Origin: a virus
Lineage: Duplodnaviria; Heunggongvirae; Uroviricota; Caudoviricetes
Length of the DNA stretch: 64,000 bases
Virus record (IMG/VR): IMGVR_UViG_2639762987_000002
Direction: 5' to 3' (one strand)
The notes under the pieces were generated by a model. That model saw only the letters and a program-made list of their open reading frames with translations, made no database searches and had not been told where the DNA came from. This document shows, in pieces, positions 15,766-62,015 of this stretch (its first letter is position 1; each line of letters starts with the position of its first letter). A program made the position numbers and the translations under genes.

Positions 15766-15822
15766 CTGTATATATAAATAATAAGTAACTTATTAAATAT
15801 ATACGGAAGCAGGTCTTTTAAA
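15766..15822. promoter_or_regulatory. AT-rich element with TATAAATA core flanked by imperfect inverted repeats (copy A)
   Basis: CTGTATATATAAATAA...TATACGGAAG(C)AGG; second copy at 61957-62015; lies in divergent intergenic region. Confidence 0.4.
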
Positions 15823-15929
15823 AGACACCACCAGAACAACTCCCTTCCGTTTCCACTTCCAAAAACTGCCACCAGTCGCTATCATCCGCTCATTGTGATA
15901 AGTAAGTAACTACCTACCAGGTGAGCCAC

Positions 15930-16670
15930 ATGAGCCAAATCTTTTTCGATACCATCGACAACGACCAGTACGACTTCATGACAGAGTGGAATACCGCTGT
16001 TATGGACAAGTGGGTCGCTGAAAACATTGGTTTGTCGCGCTGTAAAGACGAGGCTGAACTCTTCGAGACGAAGTGGTTTGATTACCGCGACATGCATCCT
16101 CTCATGGCCACCTGTCTTTTTACGGAGGCATACAAACGTCAGTACTCAAATATCATGCTGACGCACGGTCGCGAACACTTTGAAACAGCTCCGTTCACCA
16201 CCGGGTTAAAACGCCTGCCTTATCAGGAGTTGTCGACTGCCAATAAAACGTCGCTATGGAAAGCACGCCAGTTTGCGGATCGCTATTGCTGCTCATACGA
16301 CTACTTTATCTCCACCGTTCTTTCCGCAGCTGCACGACGGCTGTGGGACAAGCTGCCGCGCCCACAGCATTTGTGGCAGCCAGAACTGATTGAGATATTT
16401 GAAGAGAAATTAGCCAGACGCGCAACAACCCGTCTGGATGACTCTCTGGTTAGCTTTAAGCATATGGGAGACATGCAGTTCAACCCGATTCAGGAAAGCT
16501 ATTTTGAGTGGATTCTGGAGCGTTTGCGCACCATCCCTCGCAGCAAGCGCATACGCGCAATTTTCTCCGCTATCTGGCTAATGGAAATCGTTCCAGAGCG
16601 CCTTATTTCCGCCCACTTTCCAGAAGAACTGGAAGAAGCACGGCGGTTTATTGATCCCCTATCTAATTAA
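15930..16670 (+). CDS. Hypothetical protein
   Basis: RBS AGGTGAG before ATG 15930 (ORF track begins GTG 15921); no motif recognised. Confidence 0.5.
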   Translation: MSQIFFDTIDNDQYDFMTEWNTAVMDKWVAENIGLSRCKDEAELFETKWFDYRDMHPLMATCLFTEAYKRQYSNIMLTHGREHFETAPFTTGLKRLPYQELSTANKTSLWKARQFADRYCCSYDYFISTVLSAAARRLWDKLPRPQHLWQPELIEIFEEKLARRATTRLDDSLVSFKHMGDMQFNPIQESYFEWILERLRTIPRSKRIRAIFSAIWLMEIVPERLISAHFPEELEEARRFIDPLSN

Positions 16671-16681
16671 CTAATACTAGA

Positions 16682-16694
16682 AAACAATTTGTTT
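16682..16694. promoter_or_regulatory. Palindrome AAACAAtTTGTTT upstream of helicase gene
   Basis: Perfect half-sites AAACAA/TTGTTT 20 nt upstream of the ATG. Confidence 0.45.
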
Positions 16695-16713
16695 AAAAAA
16701 CAAAGGAAAGCAC

Positions 16714-18054
16714 ATGACCGAACTTTGCCATACAGGACGCGGGCTGTCCGAAGAGTTTGATGAAGATTTCCAGAACAGACTGACGGCATATTTTTGTCGT
16801 GATCACGAGTTTCTTACTCGTGCGGGAGATCTGGTTGTGCCTAGCCAGTTTGCCAATGCGGCCAATGCCATATTGGTTAATATGGTTTCGGGCTATTACC
16901 GTATGTACAAGAGCGCGCCCTCTTCATCTGCAATTCTGGATATGCTTAAGCGTGCGAAACGCGATAAGACTATCCGTGAGGAACTATTCGCCGATGTTGT
17001 TGCTGCGTTTAAGCGCATTCTTGCAGAAAAATTGTCCGATACCTCGTACATGGTTGACCAGGTATCAACCTTCGCAAAAAGTGTAGCGTTTGATGATGCT
17101 CTGATTAAGGCTGCTGAACTGAAAGAGAAAGGCGACTTTCAGGGGGCGATGGCAATCATGGCCAAGGTTCAGCAGATTGGATCGAACGAAGCGACCGGAA
17201 TCTATGACTACTACACCTCCGCAAGTGAGCGATTGAAAGCGCGTGAATATGAGGCTTCAGAGGAGTATGTACCAAACAGTATTACAACTGGACTCCCTCT
17301 TCTCGATAGGTTGCTGTACCAAAAAGGCTGGGCAAAGCGCGAAATGGTGCTCTTCATGGGGTTCGCTAAATCCGGTAAATCGACCGCAATGGGTGAGTTT
17401 TCCATAAACGCAACGCTTGCTGGCTACAATGTTCTGTATCTCTCGCTGGAGGTTCACACCACCATTTTATCCGACCGTTTTGATGCAAGATTGTCGGAGA
17501 CAGAAATGTCCAAGCTGGTGGAACGGCGCGATGAGGTTCATCGTAAGTTGGCAGAGTTGGGAGCCACGAAGGGGATTGGTAGTTTGTGGGTGGTTGAGCG
17601 TCCGTCAGGAAGTATGTCACCGGCAGATCTGGACCGTATGCTTAACAGCATGAAAGCCAACGGCATGGTACCTGACATGGTTGTTGTCGACTACGCAGAT
17701 TTGATGCGTGCCAGTTATGACCTTCGTGATGATCGCGCCAACATTCGTAGTATCTACACCGATTTACGTGCTCTTTATGACAAGCATAACGTTGCTGGGA
17801 TCACGGCATCGCAGACAAACCGTGAAGGTGGCGCGTCAGAAGTTGCCACAATGATGCACGCTGCCGACAACATCGAAAAAGTACGTATTGCTGACCTGGT
17901 AATAACGATCAACAAAACCGAAGAAGAAGAAGCGAAAGGAGAGGCTCGTCTCTACTTTGCCGGTTCACGTAACCAGCAGGGAGGGATCAGCATTCGCGTT
18001 AAACAAAACCTCGAACAAATGCGCTTCATTGAGCGAATCTTAGACGTTACCTAA
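16714..18054 (+). CDS. Replicative DNA helicase (DnaB-like, RecA-fold)
   Basis: 446 aa; Walker A GFAKSGKST, Walker B-like VVVDYADLM; adjacent to primase. Confidence 0.6.
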   Translation: MTELCHTGRGLSEEFDEDFQNRLTAYFCRDHEFLTRAGDLVVPSQFANAANAILVNMVSGYYRMYKSAPSSSAILDMLKRAKRDKTIREELFADVVAAFKRILAEKLSDTSYMVDQVSTFAKSVAFDDALIKAAELKEKGDFQGAMAIMAKVQQIGSNEATGIYDYYTSASERLKAREYEASEEYVPNSITTGLPLLDRLLYQKGWAKREMVLFMGFAKSGKSTAMGEFSINATLAGYNVLYLSLEVHTTILSDRFDARLSETEMSKLVERRDEVHRKLAELGATKGIGSLWVVERPSGSMSPADLDRMLNSMKANGMVPDMVVVDYADLMRASYDLRDDRANIRSIYTDLRALYDKHNVAGITASQTNREGGASEVATMMHAADNIEKVRIADLVITINKTEEEEAKGEARLYFAGSRNQQGGISIRVKQNLEQMRFIERILDVT

Positions 18055-18135
18055 AAAATAAGCGTGGAGAACACCTCCACGCTTGATTCATTGGTGAAAC
18101 AACTTTTCTTTTGCCAAACCACAAAAGAAAAACAC

Positions 18136-19317
18136 ATGAGCCTTTATGTTATATCAACATTTAGGTTGGTCACAATATTGCCTGTTAAAAGTGGAATTAT
18201 CGTGAGCGAGCTGAAAGAGCTAATTACCGAATTAGATTTTGAACAATGGTTGGATACTGAAGGTATCGTTTATCGACGTGGAGGCGTGAGTACTCGCGGT
18301 CGTGAAGTGAATATCAAGGAGTGTCCGGTATGCGGCAGCTCCAACTGGAAGGTATATTTCAATCTGACCAGTGGCGTCGGTAAATGCTTCGCTGGTGATC
18401 ATCCCGAAGAGATTCAGTTCAATAAGCTGGTCTTCCTCAAGCACTACAGCGGCAAATCACGACGACAGTTCGAGGAATATGTGCAGAACGCCCTTCTTTC
18501 CCAGGGGTGGGCACCAAAGAAAGAAGAGCTAGTGCTTGCAAGCACAGTCGAGTTAGAGGAGCCAGTTGCACTCCCTCGTCATTACGAGCTTCCTATAGAT
18601 GGCCGTCTTCCAGACTATCTGGTTGAACGAAACATATCGCCTGAAATGGCAAAGTATTTTGACCTACGATACTGCGTCGAAGGCAAGCACGCCTATGTAG
18701 ATCCGTATACAGATCAGGTTAAAGGACAGATATTCGATATGCGAATACTGATACCGGTTTACGATCTGGATGGGGTAATGAAGACATTTCAGGGACGAGA
18801 CATTACCGGTACAGCAGAACGCCGCTACCTCTTTCCTATGCAACTTCCAGCTTCAGGTAAGTTTCTCTACAACGGCCATAATGCAGTCGGCAAACAGACT
18901 GTAGTTGTCTGTGAGGGGGCGTTCGATGTTATGGGGGTTAAACGAGCTATTTTTGACGAAGAAACATTACGTGATTACGTGGAACCAATAGGAACGTTCG
19001 GGATGCATCTATCTGGTAACACCACTCAGGATGCAGAAGATCAGTTAGGCGCGTTCCTGACGCTCAAGGCGCGTGGATTACGTAATGTGATCATGATGTG
19101 GGATAGTGAAAAGCAAGCTATACGCAACACGATGGCCGCAGCCAGGCGACTGACCAGTATCGGTCTTAATGTCAAAGTTGCGTGTTTGGGTGAGGAAGGA
19201 CTCGACCCGGGCGGTGCAACGCCAGAACAAATTATCAAAGCCTATTATCGGGCAAAACCGTATACCAAACAGTTGGAGTTGCAAAGCAAGGTTTTGGGCA
19301 TTAAGGCTCTATCATAA
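18136..19317 (+). CDS. DNA primase (DnaG-like zinc finger + TOPRIM)
   Basis: ATG 18136 preceded by AAAAGAAAAACACATG; CPVCGSS...GKCFAGDH zinc motif; VVVCEGAFDVMG and MMWDSEKQ TOPRIM-like motifs. Confidence 0.7.
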   Translation: MSLYVISTFRLVTILPVKSGIIVSELKELITELDFEQWLDTEGIVYRRGGVSTRGREVNIKECPVCGSSNWKVYFNLTSGVGKCFAGDHPEEIQFNKLVFLKHYSGKSRRQFEEYVQNALLSQGWAPKKEELVLASTVELEEPVALPRHYELPIDGRLPDYLVERNISPEMAKYFDLRYCVEGKHAYVDPYTDQVKGQIFDMRILIPVYDLDGVMKTFQGRDITGTAERRYLFPMQLPASGKFLYNGHNAVGKQTVVVCEGAFDVMGVKRAIFDEETLRDYVEPIGTFGMHLSGNTTQDAEDQLGAFLTLKARGLRNVIMMWDSEKQAIRNTMAAARRLTSIGLNVKVACLGEEGLDPGGATPEQIIKAYYRAKPYTKQLELQSKVLGIKALS

Positions 19318-19392
19318 CAATCACCTTTAAAATAAGTAGATGATTACTTATCTTTCTGTGAGAATACTTTCATCTGTTAGCTAGGAGTTGGT

Positions 19393-20169
19393 ATGAAAGA
19401 CGAAATTCAGAAATTAGCCTGCGACATCATTGATAAAACTGGTTTAGAAATCAGCGAGAGCAATCGACTAGACATCATTGAAAAAGCGGTAAAAACAGCA
19501 ATGGATCATATCGCCACTCGTTTGGTCGAGATCCCGCTACCGGGGCTACCTTATCTGAAGGTTAAGTTACACGTATGGGGTGAACCTTCTTGTGCACGAC
19601 GTTCTGCATTAGTTGTTTTTATTAGCAAAGAAAACCCGCTCAGTCTTAAAGTGCAGGTTGGAGCATGGCTTGATGGCAGAGTGATCTACACAAATACCGT
19701 TTTTTGTCTTTCAAACGATGAAACTATTGAAGCGGCCATTCAAGAAGCAGTTCTAGCAATGCGCAGCAGCGGTTTGATGAAGAATAACTACGAAGAGTAC
19801 TTGCGTTCGATAAGTGGTGAAAAGACATTATCTCTGAAAGCAGATTTCGTTACCCCGAAAAATCTGTTGGAAGTCTTGCTTAATAAAGGGGCTAATGATG
19901 CCGTAAATGTAATCAGAGAGAGTGAGTATGCGTCTCTTTGCGACATGTGCAAAAGCCAGTTGGATCTGGTGCATATCGTTATTGATGCTGGGAAGGCATG
20001 TGATGGCGTAATGGCGGAATTTGCTTGGAAGGTGGTCAGGATTGCTAACGAATTACCGATGATAGAGCAAGAGGCTAAATCATACGCCACCAATCATGTC
20101 ACAGAGCTTCTTGCCCCCTATCGCTTAGAAAGCAATCAGCGCAAGATGATTAGCTGGGGAAGTTGGTAA
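19393..20169 (+). CDS. Hypothetical protein
   Basis: 258 aa; RBS AGGAG. Confidence 0.5.
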   Translation: MKDEIQKLACDIIDKTGLEISESNRLDIIEKAVKTAMDHIATRLVEIPLPGLPYLKVKLHVWGEPSCARRSALVVFISKENPLSLKVQVGAWLDGRVIYTNTVFCLSNDETIEAAIQEAVLAMRSSGLMKNNYEEYLRSISGEKTLSLKADFVTPKNLLEVLLNKGANDAVNVIRESEYASLCDMCKSQLDLVHIVIDAGKACDGVMAEFAWKVVRIANELPMIEQEAKSYATNHVTELLAPYRLESNQRKMISWGSW

Positions 20170-20224
20170 TCTCTCCGCGCGTCGTTTTTTACGCAAATAA
20201 CGATAGGTAAGTACAAGATTATTT

Positions 20225-20707
20225 ATGGCGGTAGTTGTGAAAGCTGACTTGTCAAAAATCCCCTCTATTTCAGGAAATAATGGTTATTCACTTCGTTGTG
20301 AGGAAGTAAAGATAAACGGTGAGTCGGCATATTGCAGCTACTCCGTTTGCCAGCACACCATTCTTGCCTTCAAAGAAAACCGTCTTCCTCGAACTTCATT
20401 CCAGTCGTGCGCAACCGCTATCAAAGCAGGCAAATGCAAGGCGTTAAAAATGATGGTTGAAGAGATTCGTAAAGGAGAATCTCTGTATTTCGAAGATATG
20501 ACCGTGCTCATTAAGGAGGTTGAAGAACGGAATAAACAAGCCAGAACTTTAAAACGAAAACGTGACAGTGTAACGATTAATGGCATGGTTAAGAAGAGCA
20601 CCACATCACAAACAGCGATCACTGACGTGTATGCGGCGTTGCTTGAAGAAACAACAAAAGAAACACATGAGCAAATCGATCAACATATGGAGGTAAAACA
20701 ACAATGA
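20225..20707 (+). CDS. Hypothetical protein
   Basis: 160 aa; several Cys; overlaps ligase start. Confidence 0.45.
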   Translation: MAVVVKADLSKIPSISGNNGYSLRCEEVKINGESAYCSYSVCQHTILAFKENRLPRTSFQSCATAIKAGKCKALKMMVEEIRKGESLYFEDMTVLIKEVEERNKQARTLKRKRDSVTINGMVKKSTTSQTAITDVYAALLEETTKETHEQIDQHMEVKQQ

Positions 20708-22026
20708 AAAAGTTGATCGCACTTAAGCATAAGCTGGACGAAATGAAAGCTATGGGAACCAATGCAAAAAAAGAGGCATTGGCCAACATGGATGACTTCG
20801 AGCAAAGCATGGTTTCATTGATGCTCAACCCTTTCATCCGTTTTGGGGTAAAGAAATACAAAGTGGCAGAGCCGCTTAGTGAGTCCATCCCAAGTGACGA
20901 AAAAGCCATTGATGTACTGAATAAGCTGGCCTCTCGCGAGCTAACGGGGAACGCAGCAATAGCAGCTGTTGAGTCTATCGTGGCGTCAATGTGCGCCGAT
21001 GGGCAGGACGTGTTCCGTCGTTTCCTCTTAAAAGACCCGAAAGCAGGTGTTGGGATTAGCCTATGCAACAAGGTTTTTGAAAATCCCATTCCGAAATTCG
21101 AGGTGCAGCTGGCGTCACCGTATAAAGAAAAAGGCGACAAATACCCCTTCAAGCCAAATCCTAAAGCAAAATGGCCGATGATTGGCAGTCTTAAGCTCGA
21201 TGGTTTGCGAGTAATTTGCGAGGTTATTGTTGACGAGGAAGAGGTTAACTTCCTTTCTCGTACTGGTAATCCAATCACGTCTCTCGATCACCTAAAGCCA
21301 GCAATGCTCGAATTAGGCAAACTTTCAGGCCACAAACACATCTTCTTCGATGGTGAAGGAACTGCCGGTTCATTTAACCAGTCCGTATCTGCATTGCGCA
21401 AAAAGAACGTGCAGGCAATTGGCGCTATTTATCATGTTTTCGACTTCTTCCTACCGGAATGGCGAGCACAGGCTAAATCCAAAGAGTATGCAAAGACAGG
21501 TATGAAGCTGAAAGAGCGCCTGGCTATGCTGGTGGCGTTGTTCAAAAACGATCGCAGTGAAGGCTACACACAAGACATTCACCTGCATCCGTTCTATATC
21601 ATCCATAGCCACGAAGACTTCATCGAACGCTTCATGAAACGCCTGGACGATAACGAAGAAGGGGAGATGGGCAAAGATCCGAACTCTGTTTACGAGTTTA
21701 AACGTACCCGCAGCTGGTGGAAGTTAAAAGACGAAGATTCAGAAGATGGTGAAATTATCGACTTTGAGCCGGGCGACCCGGACTCTGGTTTTGCCAACAC
21801 ACTTGGAAAAATTGTTATTCGTCTTGAAAACGGCGTCATCGTTCGTGCGAGCGGCATTAAGCATAAATATCTGGATGAGTTCTGGAACAACAAAGAGAAG
21901 TACCGTGGTCGTATTGTCGAGGTTCATTGTCACGAGAAAACACCGGACGGCAGCTTACGCCACCCACGACTGAAATGGCCGCGTTGCTTACGCGATACAG
22001 AAGATCGAATCGGAGATAAAGAATGA
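20704..22026 (+). CDS. ATP-dependent DNA ligase
   Basis: 440 aa; adenylation motif I SLKLDGLR (KxDG). Confidence 0.7.
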   Translation: MKKLIALKHKLDEMKAMGTNAKKEALANMDDFEQSMVSLMLNPFIRFGVKKYKVAEPLSESIPSDEKAIDVLNKLASRELTGNAAIAAVESIVASMCADGQDVFRRFLLKDPKAGVGISLCNKVFENPIPKFEVQLASPYKEKGDKYPFKPNPKAKWPMIGSLKLDGLRVICEVIVDEEEVNFLSRTGNPITSLDHLKPAMLELGKLSGHKHIFFDGEGTAGSFNQSVSALRKKNVQAIGAIYHVFDFFLPEWRAQAKSKEYAKTGMKLKERLAMLVALFKNDRSEGYTQDIHLHPFYIIHSHEDFIERFMKRLDDNEEGEMGKDPNSVYEFKRTRSWWKLKDEDSEDGEIIDFEPGDPDSGFANTLGKIVIRLENGVIVRASGIKHKYLDEFWNNKEKYRGRIVEVHCHEKTPDGSLRHPRLKWPRCLRDTEDRIGDKE

Positions 22027-23615: not shown

Positions 23616-23690
23616 GATGGTGTAGCTCAGCGGTAGAGCAGTTGGCTGTTAACCAACTGGTCGGTGGTTCGAATCCACCCACCATCGCCA
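23616..23690 (+). tRNA. tRNA-Asn (anticodon GTT)
   Basis: Manual fold: acceptor GATGGTG/CACCATC, anticodon loop CTGTTAA, T-loop TTCGAAT, 3' CCA. Confidence 0.75.
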
Positions 23691-23695
23691 ATTTA

Positions 23696-23782
23696 GGGGA
23701 GTTAGTCCGTAGAGGTAGCGGTGTAGACTGTAAATCTACTGTCATGGCGACTCGGGTGGTTCGACTCCATCACTCCCCACCA
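23696..23782 (+). tRNA. tRNA-Tyr (anticodon GTA), long variable arm
   Basis: 87 nt; acceptor GGGGAGT/ACTCCCC, anticodon loop CTGTAAA, T-loop TTCGACT, 3' CCA. Confidence 0.65.
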
Positions 23783-23786
23783 AATT

Positions 23787-23862
23787 GCCGGTTTAGCTCA
23801 GTTGGTAGAGCGCCTGCCTTGTAAGCAGGATGTCAGCGGTTCGAGTCCGTTAACCGGCACCA
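23787..23862 (+). tRNA. tRNA-Thr (anticodon TGT)
   Basis: 76 nt; acceptor GCCGGTT/AACCGGC, D-loop AGTTGGTAGA, anticodon loop CTTGTAA, T-loop TTCGAGT, 3' CCA. Confidence 0.8.
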
Positions 23863-24343: not shown

Positions 24344-24358
24344 GTTGAACAGTGCAAT

Positions 24359-26068: not shown

Positions 26069-26251
26069 ATTCCCACCAAACTCACTCCCGTTTCCCTTAA
26101 AATTCAAAAAACAACGTCAAAATGATTCCATACCTACTATGTATGGAATCATTGCTGAAAATGAGTTACTTTTACTCTTGATCCTATAAGAATCTATGCC
26201 TAATATACTGTTTACTTATACAGTGCATCGGCGTAACTCGGTGATTGTCAT

Positions 26252-27355
26252 ATGAAAAATAGCTTTGACAGAGCACGCGCTGCGGAGAACACCTCAAAAG
26301 AGGCGATAGAGTATCTCGAAAGAGCATCTCAAATGCAGGCCGTTATGATCTCGCAGGTTAGCAATGACATGAGATTCTCGGACGCATTCATGTTATTCAC
26401 TCGCTTATCTCTGCTGATAACCAGACGTCGGCCAGAGATCGCTGTTCATTGTATTTTGATACATGTTTTGCCGCACATTGCCGATGTAAAAGTAAGTGAC
26501 ATTAATAGGTTCATGGTGAACCAACTGGTCAACCCACTAATACTGGATGGCAAAATTGTTATGGGCCGCCGCGTTTTCTCTCTGATGAAGCAGTTCCTTA
26601 GCTGGTGCGCCTTCCAGGGGATGATAGACGTGTCACCGTTAAACGATATGTCACTAAACAAAGTTGCCGGTGGCGCAAAGCCCACACCTCGCGAGCGGAA
26701 GCTGACCGACGCAGAGGTATGGGTGTTCTGGAATATATGGGACTACTTCAATGTGTGCGCTGGTACAAAATGGGCGGCCAGGCTGTGTCTTGTATCCGCA
26801 AGACGACCTGACGAAGTACTGCGGGCTAAAAAAAGTGAGTTCAATCTTAAGCGTGGGGTTTGGAATCAAGGCAAGAGGAACAAATCTGCCCGTGAGCATT
26901 CGCTGCCTTTAAGCACATTAATGCGCACATGTATTGAAGAGTTGTTCGAATACGGTAAAGGCAGCCAGTGGCTCGTGCCTTCGAATAAAAAAATCGGGAA
27001 AGACCTTCCTATGTCTAAAGTGGCAATAGCCCAGGCATTACGTCGTATCCTGGAACGACCAGAACTGATGGAGCTTGAGCCATTTACACCCCGAGACTTG
27101 CGCCGTACTGCGCGTAGTTACTTCCCAGCATTAGGCATAAGCCAGGAGGTATCACGTAAAATCATGAACCACAGTCTTGAGGGGATAGATCGAGTCTACG
27201 ACCGGCACGATTATATGGACGAGATGCGAGACGCCTTAGAAAGTTTCTCGACGTACATCGCATCAATCGTAGAGCAACCGGATTTAGACGAAATTGACCA
27301 CAAATTTAAGGGAGATCGTCTATCAACAGAGCTTATTCGTGTAAATTTTTCATAG
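26252..27355 (+). CDS. Tyrosine site-specific recombinase (integrase or resolution recombinase)
   Basis: 367 aa; C-terminal region with ARRPDEVLR, LRRTARSY, NHSLEG...YDRHDY resembling tyrosine recombinase boxes. Confidence 0.6.
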   Translation: MKNSFDRARAAENTSKEAIEYLERASQMQAVMISQVSNDMRFSDAFMLFTRLSLLITRRRPEIAVHCILIHVLPHIADVKVSDINRFMVNQLVNPLILDGKIVMGRRVFSLMKQFLSWCAFQGMIDVSPLNDMSLNKVAGGAKPTPRERKLTDAEVWVFWNIWDYFNVCAGTKWAARLCLVSARRPDEVLRAKKSEFNLKRGVWNQGKRNKSAREHSLPLSTLMRTCIEELFEYGKGSQWLVPSNKKIGKDLPMSKVAIAQALRRILERPELMELEPFTPRDLRRTARSYFPALGISQEVSRKIMNHSLEGIDRVYDRHDYMDEMRDALESFSTYIASIVEQPDLDEIDHKFKGDRLSTELIRVNFS

Positions 27356-28200: not shown

Positions 28201-28298
28201 CCCCTCTTCTCCCTGCGCGAATGGCTTAGTTCCCTGTTCGCGCAGTGCTACATTAAACACACTAGTAAATAATTTGTTTTCATAACAAAGGATTAGCC

Positions 28299-40680: not shown

Positions 40681-40693
40681 AAACAATTTGTTA
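40681..40693. promoter_or_regulatory. Palindrome AAACAAtTTGTTa upstream of gene 40710
   Basis: Member of the AAACAA-N-TTGTTT family. Confidence 0.4.
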
Positions 40694-44893: not shown

Positions 44894-45987
44894 CAAAGCA
44901 GTTTGAGACTATTGGAAAGGATCTCAATCATCTTGATATTTTCAGGCGTCAAATTCTGCGAAAGTTCGGTTATCTTGTTGATAATGTTCTGTTTGGCATC
45001 AATTTCCCCAGCTTTCTCATCTGGTTTTTTGGGTTCGATGTCTTCAGGTTTTGGCGGTGCGACTTTGAGTTTTGGATTGCGGCTGTGAATCTGGATATAG
45101 ATCGACCGCCCACGCTTAATCTCGCTGTATTCGAGATAGCCCAAATCTTGGAGAGCTTTTAAGCCGTTACGTATAGTCTGATTCTGCGAGCTGACATTCC
45201 TGCTACTCAAATTGAGTCGCGCACGCAATCGAGCAAGCGATACCGGCGCAGGCTTGGTTGGAAGACTTTCGATGAAGGTGTACAGAGCCTGTGCTGTTTC
45301 TTTGCGTGGTAGCTTATTGATAACCTTTAACTGCAAAAGAACCTTATGGTCAAAGCGATATAGCTCGGCCAGCTTCGGTTCTGCATAGAACACCACCGTA
45401 TCTTTCTGCTCGTTGTAGTCCACGCTATTGATGAGGTGCACCATCAGAAGCGAGATCTTGTTAGAGCCGTCGACGTTCTTTTCTTCATACGTTCTCTGGA
45501 AAGACAGAGTTGTACGCATGATCTTCAAAAGACTGTTTGTAAGCCGGTCGCGGAGTGTTTTGCGGATCTGTGACGATGGATAGCCACAAAACTTAGCAAA
45601 TTTCGTGATGCTTAACTCGACACGACCGTTAGGTTCGCCGTATTCTGCCAGCGAACGCACAACGCCCACCCACGTTTTGAAATCATGATCCATGTCGAGA
45701 CGAGGACCGGTTATCTTGATATCGGAATAGCCTTCAGAACGGGCTACTTCGAGCTGGACAAGCTCCTTTGAAGCATCGATCTCATTTGGCTTGTTACGTT
45801 TACTGTATTTTGTTCCCTTAAGCGTGGGGACGAACAACCCCAGTCGCATCAACGCAATTGGTTGGACTGTATTGTTGCTATTAGGGACAAGTTCCCCTGT
45901 GTACAATTCAAGGGAACCTTCTTCAAAGTTGTCGATGTTATCTTCTACTTCTTTGTTATTTTTACCTTTTTTATTTTTTGTGGACAT
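44893..45987 (-). CDS. repA: Iteron-binding plasmid-type replication initiator (RepA-like)
   Basis: Minus strand, 364 aa from ATG at 45987 with RBS AAAGG (ORF track extends to 46107 across iterons); flanked on both sides by iterons. Confidence 0.6.
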   Translation of the reverse strand: MSTKNKKGKNNKEVEDNIDNFEEGSLELYTGELVPNSNNTVQPIALMRLGLFVPTLKGTKYSKRNKPNEIDASKELVQLEVARSEGYSDIKITGPRLDMDHDFKTWVGVVRSLAEYGEPNGRVELSITKFAKFCGYPSSQIRKTLRDRLTNSLLKIMRTTLSFQRTYEEKNVDGSNKISLLMVHLINSVDYNEQKDTVVFYAEPKLAELYRFDHKVLLQLKVINKLPRKETAQALYTFIESLPTKPAPVSLARLRARLNLSSRNVSSQNQTIRNGLKALQDLGYLEYSEIKRGRSIYIQIHSRNPKLKVAPPKPEDIEPKKPDEKAGEIDAKQNIINKITELSQNLTPENIKMIEILSNSLKLL

Positions 45988-54202: not shown

Positions 54203-54215
54203 TAACAACTTGTTT
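54203..54215. promoter_or_regulatory. Palindrome tAACAAcTTGTTT upstream of nrdB
   Basis: Member of the AAACAA-N-TTGTTT family. Confidence 0.4.
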
Positions 54216-54246
54216 AAACGCACCAAAAAAGAAAAAGGAAAAACAC

Positions 54247-55389: not shown

Positions 55390-55466
55390 ACCGATACAAA
55401 GCATTATGTGGCCTAGCAACGCTGGGCCACAATGGATCACAAGAATTAAGAAGGAACAAAACTAGC

Positions 55467-56336
55467 ATGAACTTTACCAAACTGACTGACCACCTGAAAC
55501 TTGCCACCGATCGACTCATTGGATTTAAGCCAGAACCATATGAATTGCATGAAGGCCATGGTGTAGCCACTGAAAGTATTTACAAGATGGTCGATCAGTT
55601 TCATGAACTCTTCCAGCATCCGAGACGCGTTATGCCGACACCAGAGCTGCTTCGTCTCCGTGCAAGCCTGATTCATGAAGAAGCTGTAGTGGAAGGTATT
55701 CCAGCTGCAATGAATGGGGATATTGAGCAACTGCTGGATGCAATGGCCGACTTTTTATACGTTGGTGTTGGTACGATGGTCGCCATCAAAGGTGGTATTT
55801 CTACCGGCATGACCTATTACACGCAGGAACAGAGCATTGATCGCTTTATGCAGACAATTTTTGTGCCTGGTAACACTGTTTTCGATGATATGGCAATGCC
55901 ATTTCAGGAAGCTCGTGAGGCGTCATGTATGCTCGAAGAGCTGGCAGATAAACTTGAGAAGAAGACTGTTAAGGATTCTGAGCTGATTCAGGAACTGCGC
56001 CGTGTAATGAACAAAATCTATGTGGCGTGCATGATGACTTATCGACTGGCTGATTTTCTCGGTATCAATGTCGTCGAGCTGGTTGGCGAAATTCATCGGT
56101 CCAACATGACAAAATTATGGCCTGCAGATGCCGAAGAGCGTCGCCATGCTGTGGCCAACTGCAAATACGACTCTTCTGACCTGGGATTTCGCCATGCTGA
56201 TGGCACCGATAAGATGATCGGTTTTCGAATTTCCGATGGAAAGATTCTGAAGTCTCCAACCTATAGTGATGTCGATTTATCCTCCTTTGTTGAGCAAGCT
56301 AAAGCCTCAGCAATGTACGGAATGATCAAAAAATAA
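55467..56336 (+). CDS. Possible MazG-like nucleoside triphosphate pyrophosphohydrolase
   Basis: 289 aa; helical EExxE/D-rich segment LIHEEAVVEGIPAAMNGDIEQLLDAMADFLYV; assignment tentative. Confidence 0.4.
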   Translation: MNFTKLTDHLKLATDRLIGFKPEPYELHEGHGVATESIYKMVDQFHELFQHPRRVMPTPELLRLRASLIHEEAVVEGIPAAMNGDIEQLLDAMADFLYVGVGTMVAIKGGISTGMTYYTQEQSIDRFMQTIFVPGNTVFDDMAMPFQEAREASCMLEELADKLEKKTVKDSELIQELRRVMNKIYVACMMTYRLADFLGINVVELVGEIHRSNMTKLWPADAEERRHAVANCKYDSSDLGFRHADGTDKMIGFRISDGKILKSPTYSDVDLSSFVEQAKASAMYGMIKK

Positions 56337-56405
56337 TTGTAGGTAGTTATCTATCTGTGTATATTGCGCTGGCGCGTTAAATTTCTGAAACAACTATTCG
56401 TTTTT

Positions 56406-56431
56406 GGTGGCCTATGGCCACCATTTTTTTA
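56406..56431 (+). terminator. Rho-independent terminator
   Basis: TGGTGGCC-tat-GGCCACCA followed by TTTTTTT. Confidence 0.8.
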
Positions 56432-56507
56432 TCTGTCTGGTCTTGTTCTCTCAATAAATGTAAACTCACGCAATGAATAAGTGGTTACTTATCTTTGTGA
56501 GGTTTTT

Positions 56508-57611
56508 GTGTCACTCCTTTTGAATCGTGAGCATACGAACGGTCAGGTAACAAACGCATCGTATGCAAAAGTTATTGAGACGGTGCTTAAAAGCGGCGTG
56601 CAGGCTGATGATCGCACAGGCACTGGTACTTTAAGCACCTGCTACGTTCCCTCTTACTACATGCTTACTGGTGGGACTGTGCCGCTTATTTCTGGAAAGG
56701 CGGTAAATCTTAAGCCACTGCTTGTCGAACTTGAGTGGTATCTGAAAGGCACGGGCAACATCCAATTTCTCAAGGATAACGGCGTTAAGATTTGGGATGC
56801 ATGGGCCGATGAGAATGGCGATTTGGGGCCGGTTTACGGTAAGCAGTGGCGTCGATGGGAAGATACCCGCATCGTGAGCCATAGTGAATATCTGAGCAAG
56901 ATCGCTACTTTCCGTGAACGCGGGTACAAAGTCGAGGGATACCTGGGTATCAGTGAAGATCGCGTAGTGCTGTCCCGTGAAATCGATCAGCTACAGCGTA
57001 TTGTCGATACACTGCGCACGAACCCTACCGATCGTCGCATCATGCTTAACGCATGGAACGTAGGCGAGCTTGAGGATATGAAACTGCCACCTTGCCACTT
57101 TGTCTTCTCTTTGTGGAGTCGTGAACTGGATTTTGAAACCCGTTTAACGATGGCAACTGACATTGGTCTACAACACAGTCGCCTCGGTTATGAGTCTATC
57201 TACACCAAGATGCTATACGATCTGGAGATGGACGGCAGTGTTACTGAAACTGAACTGGATGAACTTGGAATCCCCAAACGCATCCTCAACTCCTGCCTCG
57301 TACAGCGTAGCGTAGACACTTTTGTTGGTATGCCATTCAATATTGCTGGCTATGGCATTCTCACTCATTTTCTCGCGAAGATTACGGGTCACATGGCCGG
57401 TGCATTTGTGCATTTTGGCTTTGACGTGCATTTGTACAACAACCACATGGAAGGTGTGTGTGAGCTAATGCAACGACAGGCTCCAGAGCATTCAGATCCG
57501 GTCGTTATATTCCCTAATGAATGGTCTGAGCTGGATGATTTCAAATGGGACGAGATTCTTATTCTTGGCTATGCCCCTCTACCGTGGATCAAGGTTCCAG
57601 TGGCGGTGTGA
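56508..57611 (+). CDS. thyA: Thymidylate synthase (ThyA)
   Basis: DRTGTGTLS near N-terminus and catalytic MLNAWNVGELEDMKLPPCHFVFSLW; start uncertain (GTG 56508 after GAGG; ORF track begins GTG 56481). Confidence 0.85.
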   Translation: MSLLLNREHTNGQVTNASYAKVIETVLKSGVQADDRTGTGTLSTCYVPSYYMLTGGTVPLISGKAVNLKPLLVELEWYLKGTGNIQFLKDNGVKIWDAWADENGDLGPVYGKQWRRWEDTRIVSHSEYLSKIATFRERGYKVEGYLGISEDRVVLSREIDQLQRIVDTLRTNPTDRRIMLNAWNVGELEDMKLPPCHFVFSLWSRELDFETRLTMATDIGLQHSRLGYESIYTKMLYDLEMDGSVTETELDELGIPKRILNSCLVQRSVDTFVGMPFNIAGYGILTHFLAKITGHMAGAFVHFGFDVHLYNNHMEGVCELMQRQAPEHSDPVVIFPNEWSELDDFKWDEILILGYAPLPWIKVPVAV

Positions 57612-57612
57612 T

Positions 57613-58026
57613 ATGGCAAGAGGTATGTATGTCTTATGCGAAATTGAAGGTGTGCTGGCAAATACCAGCCATCGTAAATCTGTATCTGACTCGGATGCAG
57701 GCCAATTCATTGCCGGTGATGAACTCATTTTCCCCACCAGCCGTATGTTGCGTGGTTTTGCTCGCTCAGGGGCTGAAGTGGTGCTTATCAGTAGCCGCTC
57801 TGAAACTCTTGAAGCGCCCACTAAACGATGGCTGAAAGATTTTGGTGTTGATTACGACTGGCTTCACCTCGTACCGAATAGCACTAGTTATGAGAAGCAT
57901 ATTAAGCGCACATTAGCGGAGCATAAAGGCGATCTGCTTATCGCTGCGCTGGTGCACGATCCTCGACTCCGTGCCGCTTTAGCTGACTCACATCATAGAC
58001 CGGTCATCTATGAGGTGAGCAAATGA
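57613..58026 (+). CDS. Hypothetical protein
   Basis: ATG 57613 two nt after thyA stop; ORF track begins 57517 inside thyA; no motif recognised. Confidence 0.4.
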   Translation: MARGMYVLCEIEGVLANTSHRKSVSDSDAGQFIAGDELIFPTSRMLRGFARSGAEVVLISSRSETLEAPTKRWLKDFGVDYDWLHLVPNSTSYEKHIKRTLAEHKGDLLIAALVHDPRLRAALADSHHRPVIYEVSK

Positions 58027-58499
58027 AGATGATAGCTGCTGTTGGCCGTAACTATGAGATCGGCATAGCGAACGAACTGCCCTGGCGTTGTTCTACCGAT
58101 CTGAAGCTATTTAAGAGACTCACCAAAAACGCCACTGTCGTTATGGGGCGTAAAACGATGGAAAGTCTCAAACGCCCTCTTCCAGAGCGTCATAACCTCG
58201 TTTTGACGCGCTCTCATGGCTTTGTACCAAATGGATTCTACCCTGCTGGTGTGGATGATGTGTTGCGATTACCAGAGCCTGTGTGGGTGATTGGCGGGGA
58301 ACAAATTTACTCGCTATTCATGCCGCATGTTGAAGAGATTTGGCTCTCCCACATCGGCGTTGATGTGCCAAACGCCGATGCATTCTTCCCGGCAAGCATG
58401 ATGCGTAATTTAGGCTTTGTGCCTGTTGAAACAGCTTATACCCAACGAGCCAGCGAGGAAGAGCCTGGCTTTTCGCAGATCGTATACAGAAGGTCGTAA
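58023..58499 (+). CDS. folA: Dihydrofolate reductase
   Basis: 158 aa; MIAAVGRNYEIGIANELPWR and VVMGRKTMESL match DHFR N-terminal motifs; ATGA overlap with upstream gene. Confidence 0.85.
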   Translation: MKMIAAVGRNYEIGIANELPWRCSTDLKLFKRLTKNATVVMGRKTMESLKRPLPERHNLVLTRSHGFVPNGFYPAGVDDVLRLPEPVWVIGGEQIYSLFMPHVEEIWLSHIGVDVPNADAFFPASMMRNLGFVPVETAYTQRASEEEPGFSQIVYRRS

Positions 58500-59143
58500 T
58501 GGATTACCGGATTGGGATCACTGGTGCTCAGGGCAGTGGGAAAACAACCCTGGCTAAATATATCGACAAACATTACGGAATCCCTTACGTGGATGCTGGT
58601 GTCGGAAGTTTGATGAGCCGCCTCGGTGTTCGAGTAGGTGATTCTATGCCTCTATATGAGCGGCTTCAGATTCAAATGGAAATAGCAAAGCATATAGAGC
58701 TACTTACGCGTGGTGCTGAAGGCTTTGTTATCGATCGCACACCTGCTGATGTTATGGCCTACACGTTGGATTTGGTCGGCCATACAAATGAAGATCGGTG
58801 TATTGAGTTAGCCCTCGATATCGAAAAGTTTTGCCACAAAACTGCTATTTCAAACTTTAACGCCATTGCTGGCCTACGCCCGGGGGTCGCTCTCTCAGAG
58901 CGAGATTACTTGCGGTCACAACGAGCATCATTAGACCGTCTGTATGTCGCTCGTATTGATGCGTTGATGTGCGGGGAACTGACAAAAATTCACCTGCATC
59001 CGCAAAGGGGAGATCTGCAAACCTTCGTCGTTTCCAACCGGTATCGCACAGTTGAAGCAAGAGCCAGATCAGTGATGAGAATGCTAGATAACGCGGTAGA
59101 AAAGATAGAAAACCGGTTCTGTGGCCGAGTGACCGTTCATTAG
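58499..59143 (+). CDS. P-loop nucleotide kinase (possible dNMP kinase)
   Basis: 214 aa; Walker A GITGAQGSGKTT at N-terminus; sits in nucleotide-metabolism cluster. Confidence 0.45.
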   Translation: MDYRIGITGAQGSGKTTLAKYIDKHYGIPYVDAGVGSLMSRLGVRVGDSMPLYERLQIQMEIAKHIELLTRGAEGFVIDRTPADVMAYTLDLVGHTNEDRCIELALDIEKFCHKTAISNFNAIAGLRPGVALSERDYLRSQRASLDRLYVARIDALMCGELTKIHLHPQRGDLQTFVVSNRYRTVEARARSVMRMLDNAVEKIENRFCGRVTVH

Positions 59144-59204
59144 AAATTGTTCGCCTCTTCGACATTGCGACAATAAAACTCTCAAAATGGGTTAAGGATA
59201 AAAA

Positions 59205-59624
59205 ATGTTTAGTGAAATGTTGCTTGAAGATGAACTGGATCGGAAAACAACAGAGGCTTTGATTCGTGTAGCGGACGAACATTCCCGGTCGCTTATGAGC
59301 GATCGAGAGGCTCGTCTGGCTATTCGTGCCATATTCGAAACTGCGCAGGGGCTTGTTGGTACACAAGTGGGTGAAGCCATTAACATCGCCATGTCTCAGT
59401 TCAGTGAAGGCAGTAAAAAGTCTCTGTTTCCTATGCATTTGATGCTGGCTGGTGGCACGGTGCTTTATATCTCTGTTTGTCTGGATAGCAACCAAATCAA
59501 TATTCTCAACACTGTGTCAGGTAAGTGGAAAGATCCGATTGTCTGTGAAACCAGTGAAGAAACTTTGAAAAAAGCGGCTCAATTTGTACGTAGCGCACTA
59601 CTTAAGGGCGCTAAGAAGTTGTAA
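59205..59624 (+). CDS. Hypothetical protein
   Basis: 139 aa; helical. Confidence 0.5.
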   Translation: MFSEMLLEDELDRKTTEALIRVADEHSRSLMSDREARLAIRAIFETAQGLVGTQVGEAINIAMSQFSEGSKKSLFPMHLMLAGGTVLYISVCLDSNQINILNTVSGKWKDPIVCETSEETLKKAAQFVRSALLKGAKKL

Positions 59625-59633
59625 GGAGTTCTG

Positions 59634-60191
59634 ATGACAACGATTGTTGCAGGCATCGATATCGAGTCTACGGGACTGGATTTCCTTGCTGGTCATAAAA
59701 TTATTGAAATCGCAATTACCCGCTATGAACTGGAGACACAGAGACATATTGATAGTCTGGAGATGCGTTTTAACCCTCGCAGAAACATAGATCCGAAAGC
59801 TCAAGCCGTTCATGGCATTTCATTGGAACAGCTCGCAGCTGAACCTTTGTTGTCAAATCATGCCAGCGAAATTGGCGCTTATATGGGGGCATGTAGTGTG
59901 TGGGTTGCTCATAACGGCGAAGCATTTGATATACCATTTATTCGACACGAGTTTTCAGGGTATGGAGTAAGACTGCCAGAAGTTCCTGTTATAGATACTA
60001 TGTTATCGGGATTGTGGGCCACAGAAGACGGCAAACGTCCCCGCCTTGAAGAGTTGGCCTTCTCTCTTGGCTATATATACGATCATGCCAAAGCACATAG
60101 TGCCTTATATGACACAAACTTAATGATGCAATGCTTCTTTAAGGCACGTAATAAGTACGGATTTTTTAAATTACCCTCTGAAATTGTGTAA
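59634..60191 (+). CDS. DnaQ-like 3'-5' exonuclease (DEDDh)
   Basis: 185 aa; Exo I GIDIESTGL, Exo II HNGEAFD, Exo III HSALYDT. Confidence 0.75.
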   Translation: MTTIVAGIDIESTGLDFLAGHKIIEIAITRYELETQRHIDSLEMRFNPRRNIDPKAQAVHGISLEQLAAEPLLSNHASEIGAYMGACSVWVAHNGEAFDIPFIRHEFSGYGVRLPEVPVIDTMLSGLWATEDGKRPRLEELAFSLGYIYDHAKAHSALYDTNLMMQCFFKARNKYGFFKLPSEIV

Positions 60192-60195
60192 AACA

Positions 60196-60233
60196 AAAGC
60201 CTACTTTAAAAAGTTTAAAGTAGGCTTTCTTTT
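60196..60233 (+). terminator. Rho-independent terminator
   Basis: AAAGCCTACTTT-loop-AAAGTAGGCTTT followed by CTTTT. Confidence 0.8.
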
Positions 60234-60349
60234 AAAGAACAGTAGCCTTTCAATCATTTCCTGCCTGTATTTAATACTTTTCCGCCTGATAGGTTTAGTC
60301 AAAATGCAGCCATCGAAACGCAAATGTAACCAAACAGAAGGAGACTTAC

Positions 60350-61159
60350 ATGAGTTCGGTTGAAAATGTAATGACAAATGATGATCTGGACGAGCTGACA
60401 GCCATGTTGCAATCACTTGATGAACCAGTAAAAAAAGCTGCACAGGTTGAAAATACTGATGATATTGACGATCTGCTGCTCGGCCTAGATGCTGGCGTAG
60501 CCATGAGTTCTGATGATGTTGCCGAAGAACTGTTCAATGAAGAAAAAGCAGGTGATTTCAGCTCTGCTTTAAATGAGTTGGAGTTAGCGCATGAGCCTAT
60601 AAACGTAATTAACGCTGAAAGTGTTGAAGCTGCCGAAAACGAGCCAGAACAATTGGGATTTATTGAGGTTGAAGAGTGTGTTGAGGTTAATGATGAATTA
60701 AAAGTTCAACAGTCAAATGATAGCAATACAAATAAAAAAGCTCGTACTGCAAGAGGTCCTCGTTTTACTTTAAGTGATAAAGATGATTCGTTTTTCAATA
60801 AAGCGGGCTTAGAAAAAGATATTTTCTTAGACGCTTACGATAACGCGCCTGTCAAAGCAAAGGATAAGATATTAAACCTTCTTAATTGGTTTAGCGGAGG
60901 TCCAGATATTAGTGTTTACACGGTAATTTCCATGAGACACCTTCTCACAGAAAAGAAGGCTACAAGTAATAGTATTAAGATTGCTTTAATGAGCAATCCA
61001 GAAAAACCGTATCCGCTTAATACTGCGTCAACTCAGGCTGGGCAAATGATGGCTGTATTTCCAGCGACAGGAATTGCCGTTAGAGACGGTGGAAATCTAA
61101 CATTGAACGAAGAATCACCGATCGTTAAGAAGTTTGTCGCGGAGTACACTATTGGATGA
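60350..61159 (+). CDS. Hypothetical acidic protein
   Basis: 269 aa; D/E-rich N-terminal half; RBS AAGGAG. Confidence 0.5.
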   Translation: MSSVENVMTNDDLDELTAMLQSLDEPVKKAAQVENTDDIDDLLLGLDAGVAMSSDDVAEELFNEEKAGDFSSALNELELAHEPINVINAESVEAAENEPEQLGFIEVEECVEVNDELKVQQSNDSNTNKKARTARGPRFTLSDKDDSFFNKAGLEKDIFLDAYDNAPVKAKDKILNLLNWFSGGPDISVYTVISMRHLLTEKKATSNSIKIALMSNPEKPYPLNTASTQAGQMMAVFPATGIAVRDGGNLTLNEESPIVKKFVAEYTIG

Positions 61160-61342
61160 CGTTCCCCTACTTAAAATAAAGCCCATAGAGAGCTTTATAG
61201 TACTGGGTAAGCCAATCACATACCCAGCACCACAAAAACGCGCCAGAGAGCTTCTCGTTTGCATTTCTGGCGCGTTTTATTTGATTGCCAGACATAAAAT
61301 CAAATGCAAAAATAGGTATATACTTACCTATCGAGAAAGAAG

Positions 61343-61936
61343 ATGATTGCAGCCGAAAAAATCAAACAGCGAAAGCGCGACAACTCTCTTCGTGACCTCT
61401 GGAGAACACCTGACTGGCTGTTTTCTGCCATTCAACGTTATCTTGGAGTGACATTTGATGTTGACGTTGCCTGCAACAAGGACAATGCAAAGCTGCCTAA
61501 TTTCATAGGCGTTGAGCGTGATGCTTTGAAATCTGAATGGGGACAGCCAGGTACAATTGCCTTCCTCAATCCACCCTACTCCAAAATCTCCCCCTGGATT
61601 GATGCGGCTATACGTGAGCAGGCTCGCGGAGTTACAACAGTGATGCTAATTCCTCAATCCCTAGATACAAAGTGGTATGAGCGTGCAACAGAGTGTGCGA
61701 ATGAGACGATTATTCTGTCTGGTGGCCGCGTAGCGTTTGTCGAGCCTGACGTAAATCTGGGTCAGGTAGAAGTAAACATCAACCCAGGTGGCAGTATGCT
61801 CGTTGTTTTTCGAGGATTCTGTCAGGACGCTGGGCACTCTATAAGCAAGATCCCTTTGGACGTCATGAAAAGTCTGGGAGGGTATGATCCTGCGAATGTG
61901 ATCAGGAAAAAAAGACCATCAAAGAAGGCTGCTTAG
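61343..61936 (+). CDS. DNA N6-adenine methyltransferase (phage Dam-like)
   Basis: 197 aa; catalytic FLNPPYSKISPW (NPPY) motif. Confidence 0.7.
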   Translation: MIAAEKIKQRKRDNSLRDLWRTPDWLFSAIQRYLGVTFDVDVACNKDNAKLPNFIGVERDALKSEWGQPGTIAFLNPPYSKISPWIDAAIREQARGVTTVMLIPQSLDTKWYERATECANETIILSGGRVAFVEPDVNLGQVEVNINPGGSMLVVFRGFCQDAGHSISKIPLDVMKSLGGYDPANVIRKKRPSKKAA

Positions 61937-61956
61937 TTTGTTCTGGTGTCTGTAAT

Positions 61957-62015
61957 TAGCCTGCTTCTGTATATATAAATAACTACATATTAATTATTAA
62001 TATACGGAAGAAGGC
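61957..62015. promoter_or_regulatory. AT-rich element with TATAAATA core flanked by imperfect inverted repeats (copy B)
   Basis: CTGTATATATAAATAA...TATACGGAAGAAGG; paralogous to 15766-15822. Confidence 0.4.

Follow-up and report, generated by a model that had tools for sequence, protein, structure and literature searches.

Two copies of a 55-nucleotide (nt) imperfect palindrome lie at positions 15759-15813 and 61960-62014 of a 64,000-nt stretch of DNA from a tailed virus (Caudoviricetes; IMG/VR record IMGVR_UViG_2639762987_000002), referred to here as the window, and the complete genomes of its relatives PhiR41_1 and SSU5 carry exactly three copies, each intergenic, on the gene strand and at the head of a gene block. 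In this element, inverted arms (CCTGyTTCyGTATAT / ATATACrGAAGCAGG) enclose 25–30 nt of nearly pure A+T. The element family is genuine and strongly conserved, in kind a repeated intergenic regulatory palindrome, and apparently undescribed so far: a full-text literature search returned no description of it, and one 2026 preprint on SSU5-like phage-plasmids (10.64898/2026.08.19.745698), checked by term counts alone, shows in those counts no stem-loops, palindromes or antitermination. We tentatively favour, at somewhat less than even confidence, the reading that the element is a terminator or attenuator hairpin at block boundaries that is recognised by a specific factor.

Three copies at the heads of gene blocks

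Window positions 15000-17000 match Escherichia phage CMS-2020a at 99.3% identity and the circular 108-kb Escherichia phage PhiR41_1 at 98.8%, and ~15760-17000 match Salmonella phage SSU5 at 81.6%; the window therefore represents ~60% of an SSU5-like phage-plasmid genome, of a type in which the + strand carries almost every gene. A covariance model built from five copies and searched against the window and the complete PhiR41_1 and SSU5 genomes found exactly three loci per complete genome and nothing further up to E = 10, the additional minus-strand matches being the same palindromes read in reverse. Copy 1 precedes the genes for a 246-amino-acid (aa) protein, a DnaB-like helicase and a DnaG-like primase. 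Copy 2 begins 4 nt past the stop of the gene for a dam-family methylase and is followed by the gene for a 75-aa protein, and copy 3, outside the window (45581-45637 in the PhiR41_1 record), precedes terS/terL and the structural genes. The PhiR41_1 copies, at ~13.4, 45.6 and 75.1 kb, are separated round the circle by ~30, 46 and 32 kb and split it into a packaging, structure, lysis and par block, a block of replication and nucleotide metabolism, and an accessory and regulatory block.

The sequence-only reading of the window had left open whether more than two copies exist, and the searches of whole genomes and databases produced a third copy and hundreds of homologues in related elements. BLAST with a 68-nt core matched 800 PLSDB plasmids, 759 of them typed non-mobilizable, from Klebsiella (313), Escherichia (237), Enterobacter (92), Yersinia (62), Salmonella (49), Citrobacter (25) and Cronobacter (10). 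Yersinia pestis pMT1 and plasmids of the Salmonella Typhi pHCM2 type are among them, and the Y. pestis pMT match is copy 3, upstream of the terminase genes. Roughly 150 IMG/VR loci, gathered by their conserved flanks or the arm pattern (sequence loci are cited below by L numbers), all fall in the same three contexts, and the arm-pattern scan of IMG/VR showed no fourth context, in both cases among the matches listed. Species-representative genomes gave eight true matches (Kluyvera, Buttiauxella, Yersinia and mis-binned metagenome-assembled genomes) and two chance matches. Repetitive extragenic palindromes (REP) and miniature inverted-repeat transposable elements (MITE) are expected in many copies at non-syntenic sites, and here we found three syntenic positions. 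The palindrome also coincides with the ends of database records: the SSU5 reference NC_018843.1 is linearised in the middle of copy 3 (record ends at L007 6250-6299 and L005 1-65), and L023, L032 and L057 start or end within a copy. The simplest reading of these ends is that assemblies broke at a repeat present three times, and because the palindrome acts as an assembly breakpoint we do not take the SSU5 and contig ends for physical genome ends.

Both window copies contain the 19-mer CTTCTGTATATATAAATAA (15763-15781 with one mismatch, 61964-61982 with none), which has no other site in the window, a chance expectation of 0.01 and two matches in 0 of 100 shuffles, and downstream of it TATACGGAAG (15801-15810 and 62002-62011). 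The window arms read CCTG(T/C)TTCTGTATAT and ATATACGGAAG(C/A)AGG. Similarity between the copies reaches ~15730-15840 and ~61940-62060 (~115–120 nt), past the limits first assigned to the element, and an extended imperfect palindrome of ~130 bp includes TCTGG ... CCAGA, the boxes of an outer inverted repeat (Table 1). Folded as gene-strand RNA, copy 1 gives -27.8 kcal/mol (z -6.8) and copy 2 -22.1 kcal/mol (z -3.9), and folded as DNA they give z -6.4 and -6.0; the predicted stem-loop has a G+C clamp, CCUGCUUC/GAAGCAGG, and an A+U-rich upper stem, and the A+T centre of copy 1 is itself nearly palindromic (inner AATAAGT-A-ACTTATT). Both the duplication of one AT-rich element and the ability of its complementary flanks to form a stem around an AT-rich loop, as proposed from the sequence alone, were thus borne out. 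The suggestion that the copies might be small RNA genes found no support, as no promoter was recognised and only tRNAs in the window passed the thresholds of the Rfam 15 covariance models; at the element itself these gave sub-threshold microRNA-precursor models (at most 21 bits against cut-offs of at least 47).

Conservation of the arms, the centre and the outer boxes

Within the main clade (44 distinct hairpins) the arms vary at four positions alone, CCTG[C/T][T/G]T[C/T][C/T]GTATAT, and they are kept in distant relatives, found through homologues of the 246-aa protein, in which this neighbouring protein is 45–64% identical. With these relatives included, 92.4% of cells in 29 distinct arm pairs are paired; 5 of the 15 pairs have changed on both sides, and the observed pairing or covariation score was reached in only 1 of 500 shuffles, kinship inflating such figures. 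In L175 the arms are CCTGCTCCCCAT/ATGGGAAGCAGG, a single G-C pair having turned into C-G, and L178 has CCTGCTTTCTA on both arms, while L173 and L201 combine exact arms with unrelated, non-pairing centres. Judged from these alignments, conservation between the three copies and across distant relatives extends to the arm sequence itself, beyond its pairing.

The total length stays at 51–59 nt in all lineages, also with a scan permitting 34–64 nt. The orientation of the centre is flipped in Cyrano, L031, L038 and L221, and slippage of TA repeats alters its length by 2–6 nt (element 51–57 nt); through both kinds of change the hairpin stays intact. Main-clade stems are 23–26 bp long with conserved small internal mismatches (tandem A.A and U.G), L173, L201 and L220 have a 15-bp stem with a ~23-nt unpaired loop, and at copy 3 folding predicts longer structures, of up to ~150 nt. 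Copies 1 and 3 have centres that are similar within a genome type and different between types, with both hairpins identical in some genomes, which indicates concerted evolution of the copies. TCTG boxes lie only to the left of the centre and CAGA boxes only to the right at all three copies, and TCTGG recurs ~17–25 nt upstream of the copy 1 hairpin even where the flanks of different lineages are non-homologous. Pairs of the G.U type outnumber those of the C.A type 39 to 5 among the 44 distinct hairpins; we dropped this wobble bias as evidence for RNA because folding energy does not consistently favour either strand at copies 2 and 3.

The octamer TATAAATA does not share in this conservation. 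It had been likened to T4-type late promoter boxes, and it is indeed present in both window copies, but because the centre diverges and sometimes flips it is not a conserved core of the family, and the T4 late-promoter reading finds no support. In the window it is weakly enriched, with 5 matches against 1.9 expected and at least 5 in 6 of 100 shuffles. Among 114 distinct main-clade variants it stands on the gene strand in 96, only on the other strand in 2 and nowhere in 16; some variants have TATAACTA, GATAAATA or TATTAAATA in its place. It moves to the opposite strand in the four genomes with a flipped centre, is absent in L173, L175, L178 and L201 despite their kept arms, and is absent or inverted also in L220 and L221. 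A promoter in the A+T centre, whether of the T4 late type or of the sigma-70 type, would suit the position of the copies upstream of operons and the gene-strand octamers of the main clade, and we nevertheless consider it highly improbable: the octamer is missing, changed or inverted in several lineages that bear the element, and its spacing to the arms varies through TA slippage. A sigma-70 scan gave no gene-strand match with -35 and -10 hexamers 16–18 bp apart at copies 1 and 2 (copy 2 has two opposite-strand matches, a chance level), and the recognisable promoters of the genome are of a different type, with a TTGaca-like -35 and a GATAAT -10. No sigma factor, including late gp55/gp33-type factors, is listed in the PhiR41_1 and SSU5 annotations, which were consulted as annotations only, with no profile search of all open reading frames (ORFs). 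A LexA box was rejected, since CTGTATATATAAATAA fits the first half-site alone and the CAG of the second half is missing, and by eye no consensus for IHF, the DnaA box or sigma-54 was seen at the element; integron attC sites were compared (PMC9892861) and proved irrelevant.

The main-clade duplex, more than two helical turns long with its small internal mismatches, offers at least ~20 bp of near-continuous double-stranded RNA and so could be an RNase III substrate. As a processing or mRNA-stability site, the A+U-rich duplex would be cut in read-through transcripts and would separate the mRNAs of the blocks, in the manner of the RNase III sites between T7 genes or of lambda sib. The intergenic position and similar sequence of the copies and the long folds at copy 3 agree with such a role, but distant relatives keep only the 15-bp stem, which is under substrate length, and the enzyme does not need the sequence conservation observed; we regard this explanation as improbable.

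A further candidate is a dispersed partition centromere of the N15 kind, or a selfish, recombination-prone palindrome without function that is kept by gene conversion. N15 reportedly has four separated, short and compact sop palindromes that are bound by SopB. The likeness lies in a few palindromes scattered over the genome of a low-copy plasmid-prophage, some of them heading phage operons; the differences are that the arms here are ~25–30 bp of A+T apart and that the par genes are of another type (small ParA plus a 119-aa partner). Copy 1 does lie 0.03–2 kb downstream of parAB, its upstream flank is mosaic between lineages, and assembly breaks within the element are frequent. Against this, the plasmids that keep the element are said to differ in their par systems, that of pMT1 being P1-type, the copies hold fixed syntenic positions in Salmonella, Escherichia, Klebsiella and Yersinia, unlike a mobile repeat, and conservation at 45–64% identity of the neighbouring protein argues for function, so that we consider either variant quite improbable. 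Near the par genes we also observed a separate, perfect 16-bp inverted repeat, AGTTATGCATTGGCGC-N7-GCGCCAATGCATAACT. It begins 2 nt past the stop codon of the 119-aa gene next to parA, close to where a convergent GIY-YIG gene ends, and might serve as a terminator in both directions or as the par centromere.

Proposed termination at block boundaries and its DNA-level rivals

The window copies share two features with intrinsic terminators, a stable stem-loop with a G+C base and a T-tract on the transcribed strand only. Scored as at least 5 T in the 8 nt after the hairpin, with an A-tract on the other side as the mirror case, a T-tract follows copy 1 in 49 of 53 distinct variants (mirror 16 of 53) and copy 2 in all 29 (mirror 0 of 29), and at copy 1 it is kept also in the distant lineages L178, L201 and L191. 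Where the hairpin has no T-tract of its own, a terminator may stand nearby: downstream of copy 3 come two AAACAAGTTG(G/T)TT palindromes and, ~90 nt on and directly before the terS ribosome-binding site, a classic terminator (GAGCGC-loop-GCGCTC plus TGTGTGTTTT, with a compensatory variant GAGCAC/GTGCTC), and L220, a distant copy 2, has a small hairpin and T7 ~20 nt downstream. In the Morganella-type relatives L174 and L176 (neighbouring protein 48–49% identical) no such palindrome occurs at the copy 1 position, which holds an unrelated G+C hairpin with a T-tract (GGGAGCA..TGCTCCC TTTCTTT); by sequence comparison, the 5' half of this hairpin looks like the old right arm put to new use (ATGGGAGCA, compared with ATGGGAAGCAGG in L175).

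We favour the boundary-element reading because all lineages share conserved inverted arms, ~25 nt of A+T, a block boundary and a nearby T-tract terminator. A family-specific, cis-acting palindrome would then mark each of the three places where the main, co-oriented gene blocks meet, and its gene-strand transcript would fold into a long stem-loop. Since a U-tract directly follows the hairpin at copies 1 and 2, transcripts running into the next block should be stopped or attenuated there, so that the element would serve as an insulator between the blocks of a circular genome transcribed almost wholly one way; at copy 3 the hairpin, without a U-tract, would precede the separate terminator just before terS. 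Because the arm sequence and not pairing alone is conserved, we infer a dedicated phage or host factor that recognises the stem or arms and that may set the choice between stop and read-through, by conditional termination or antitermination, or may direct processing.

Among the closest known systems are intrinsic (Rho-independent) terminators, including the leader terminators of phage operons under antitermination control, such as those of lambda (tR1/tL1 with nut, pR'-tR' with Q). They share with copies 1 and 2 a G+C-clamped stem-loop with a 3' T-tract, immediately behind an upstream gene and with a long operon to follow; at copy 3, a terminator that directly precedes the late (terS) genes is a further likeness, and a conserved hairpin upstream of terminators recalls the logic of nut boxB. 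In contrast, the stem of the element is two to three times longer and mostly A+U, its three copies are near-identical with sequence-conserved arms, and one of them lacks a T-tract. Neither a boxA nor a protein like N or Q was identified for the element, and termination here is predicted. The PeSL cassettes of T4-type phages, which reportedly are numerous, pair a recognisable early promoter with a short stem-loop of terminator type and are located in hyperplastic regions, resemble the element as repeated intergenic stem-loops at module junctions with shuffled neighbours, as in the mosaic upstream flank of copy 1. They differ from it in that it has only three copies, fixed syntenic positions and no recognisable promoter.

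Several observations weigh against the terminator. None of the 32 copy 3 variants has a T-tract, so termination cannot be the function common to all three copies. Stem and loop exceed those of a compact terminator (stem ~5–14 bp, loop 3–8 nt), and neither window copy was called in a terminator scan; the canonical terminators of the genome, with 7–9 bp G+C stems, tetraloops and long T-runs, are unlike the element. The gene strand folds better than its complement in 46 of 53 variants of copy 1, in 12 against 16 of copy 2 and in 18 against 14 of copy 3, which is no consistent advantage, and little transcription may reach copy 1 from upstream because the gene at 14880-15647 is on the opposite strand. 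Finally, since the 51–59 nt length is kept even where the centre is unpaired, and arm and outer-box sequences are kept even within non-homologous flanks, a constraint on spacing and sequence in double-stranded DNA fits better than an RNA hairpin. The missing T-tract of copy 3, the non-canonical hairpin, the constrained spacer and the conservation of arms and boxes fit a double-stranded DNA site at least as well.

One such site would be a palindromic origin of lytic replication, or an unwinding element, in three copies. A phage initiator or helicase loader would bind the 15-bp inverted arms and the outer TCTGG/CCAGA boxes, and the 25–30 bp pure A+T spacer would melt or extrude so that two DnaB-like hexamers could be loaded in opposite directions. 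The element does have an A+T-rich core between inverted repeats, with a near-constant spacer length even where the spacer is unpaired, and the one-sided placement of the TCTG and CAGA boxes, the tolerance of centre flips and the lack of a consistent strand bias all agree with this arrangement. So do the position of copy 1 directly upstream of the helicase and primase operon, the spread of the three sites round the circle, and the presence of a phage-encoded replisome, with the plasmid replicon (rep gene) located elsewhere. A common A+T core with inverted repeats resembling protein sites is found in herpes simplex virus 1 (HSV-1) oriS/oriL, baculovirus hr and the archaeal ORB-DUE-ORB arrangement (origin recognition boxes around a DNA unwinding element), and several dispersed copies per genome, one of them adjoining replication genes, are a further likeness. 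Set beside these palindromic origins, the element has a one-sided T-tract and comes without a skew signal or an identified initiator. In bacterial and phage origins, direct iterons normally lie beside the unwinding element and not around it. An origin leaves unexplained the T-tracts at copies 1 and 2, it does not require sites at block boundaries directly after stop codons, and the Morganella-type exchange for a plain terminator-like hairpin counts against the copy 1 position being an essential origin. Over nearly the whole circle GC skew is positive, and neither GC nor AT skew changes at any copy, a weak test given that skew tracks gene orientation and the genes are co-oriented; skew analysis cannot decide between an origin and an operator. 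On balance we consider the origin-like site, suggested already from the sequence alone, unlikely, though it is the leading rival.

An operator, enhancer or roadblock in double-stranded DNA would instead have a symmetric regulator bind the arms and control or insulate the three blocks without any RNA hairpin, with mycobacteriophage stoperators and an upstream activator site as conceivable analogues. Conservation of arms and outer boxes in excess of pairing, the position of the copies at the head of three operon blocks and their concerted evolution within a genome, to the point of identical centres in copies 1 and 3, would be expected of such a site, as would the joint change of both arms in L175 and L178. 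However, the nearest -10-like hexamer lies at differing distances from the hairpin in the three copies (~66, 70 and 20 nt), TA slippage shifts the arm-to-arm spacing by as much as 6 bp, which a rigid dimer would not easily accommodate, the immunity region contains no copy, no cognate protein was found, and the abundant promoter-associated operator of the genome is a different palindrome, AAACAAnTTGTTT. We regard an operator role as distinctly unlikely.

Neighbouring features and significance

Positions of the parts of the element and of its surroundings are collected in Table 1. The leader downstream of copy 1 may contain a weak promoter for the 246-aa ORF and the helicase and primase genes, and the -10-like hexamer downstream of copy 2 may belong to a promoter for the 75-aa ORF. 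Homologue and fold comparisons of the proteins adjoining the element gave no clue to function: no informative homologue or fold match was found for the 246-aa protein, and the 75-aa protein belongs to a helical family without annotation. At the place of the GIY-YIG gene upstream of copy 1, SSU5 has a DUF2971 gene and other lineages have unrelated genes, which makes this flank a hotspot of mosaicism or insertion. Between the 246-aa and dnaB-like genes, relatives of the Morganella type have a small Hfq-like gene (L174 10787-11023, L176 2787-3041; faint or weak Pfam Hfq matches), of which there is none in the window's genome.

Table 1. Coordinates of the palindrome copies, their flanks and neighbouring features (window positions unless a genome is named)
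Feature	Position	Strand	Remarks
Copy 1 core hairpin	15759..15813	+	by folding; arms 15759-15775 and 15797-15813 (CCTGTTTCTGTATATAT / ATATATACGGAAGCAGG)
Copy 1 covariance-model match	15745-15860	+	120.7 bits
TATAAATA in copy 1, left half	15773..15780	+	part of TA-rich stem; not conserved in the family
Copy 1 T-tract TCTTTT	15814..15826	+	within small palindrome GTCTTTTAAAAGAC; directly 3' of hairpin
Copy 1 outer left box TTCTGG	15731..15736	+	pairs with or mirrors CCAGAA 15831-15836
Copy 1 outer right box CCAGAA	15831..15836	+	CAGA at +45 in 91% of copy 1 variants
Replication-block leader CCCTTCCGTTTCCACTTCCAAAAA	15842-15865	+	conserved
Leader CCAGTCGC, then -10-like TATCAT	15872-15879; 15880-15885	+	conserved region 15842..15885; candidate weak promoter
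Copy 2 core hairpin	61960..62014	+	CCTGCTTCTGTATAT ... ATATACGGAAGAAGG; one G/A mismatch, private to this genome
Copy 2 covariance-model match	61946-62066	+	116.3 bits
TATAAATA in copy 2	61974..61981	+	sequence match
Copy 2 T-tract CTGTTTTGT	62015..62023	+	directly 3' of hairpin
Copy 2 outer left boxes GTTCTGG (61940-61946), GTCTG	61940..61952	+	begin 4 nt past dam-like stop codon; GTTCTGG forms an inverted repeat with CCAGAC
Copy 2 right CAGA boxes CCAGAC, CAGAA, CCAGACGC	62034-62039; 62053-62057; 62075-62082	+	
-10-like TAAAAT	62085-62090	+	upstream of 75-aa ORF; candidate promoter
255-aa protein, LEM-3-like GIY-YIG nuclease domain	14880-15647	-	Pfam E 5.5e-7; directly upstream of copy 1
246-aa ORF	ATG 15930	+	first gene after copy 1; then DnaB-like helicase, DnaG-like primase
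dam-like gene	61343-61936	+	stop codon 4 nt before copy 2 outer boxes
75-aa ORF	ATG 62122	+	downstream of copy 2
Inverted repeat AGTTATGCATTGGCGC-N7-GCGCCAATGCATAACT	14829-14867		perfect, 16 bp
Canonical compact terminator CAGGCGAC-tttg-GTCGCC + TTTTTTGTT	13624-13651		upstream of parA promoter
AAACAAnTTGTTT palindrome	13752-13764; 16682-16694; 28267-28279; 40681-40693; 54203-54215		6-1-6
Terminator-operator-promoter cassette	PhiR41_1 ~21150-21200, 26230-26290; SSU5 ~85580-85640, 87600-87650, 88300-88340		accessory region
tRNA cluster, three genes	23616-23859		Rfam tRNA matches 75.5, 41.6 and 74.9 bits

The second intergenic palindrome, AAACAAnTTGTTT, is far more abundant than the three-copy element (~18–20 copies per genome in PhiR41_1 and SSU5) and looks like the operator of a global regulator. 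Most of its sites lie 12–14 nt past a -10 box of the GATAAT/TATTAT type and just before a ribosome-binding site, a layout comparable to the OB sites of RK2 KorB or to the start-associated sequences of mycobacteriophages. It precedes parA, the dnaB-like gene, nrdB and many small accessory genes, and two sites fall in the leader between copy 3 and terS. The accessory region also contains a recurrent cassette in which a terminator-like hairpin, AAGGCCAC-N5-GTGGCCTT, has AAACAAnTTGTTTTCTAC and a promoter-like stretch immediately behind it; as a terminator-operator-promoter unit, the cassette recalls the PeSL cassettes of T4.

Phage-plasmids of the SSU5/pHCM2/pMT1 type are common in clinical Enterobacterales, the group includes carriers of resistance genes (PMC9600943, PMC12217456), and their transcription programme and lytic origin are essentially unmapped. 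In practical terms, the element is a recurrent assembly breakpoint, as the cut SSU5 reference illustrates. For the biology of the group, a three-copy element at block boundaries offers a handle on how lytic genes are silenced in the plasmid state and how they are switched on. A bolder and, in our judgement, doubtful possibility is that the three palindromes are loading sites for a novel machine of the lytic cycle, either dispersed palindromic lytic origins or hairpins that recruit an antiterminator. Origins of this kind, similar to oriS or hr, would be unusual for a phage, and a processive antiterminator would switch on all three gene blocks together; in either case one family of cis-elements would govern the switch from plasmid to phage across the 800 PLSDB plasmids, some of which carry resistance genes.

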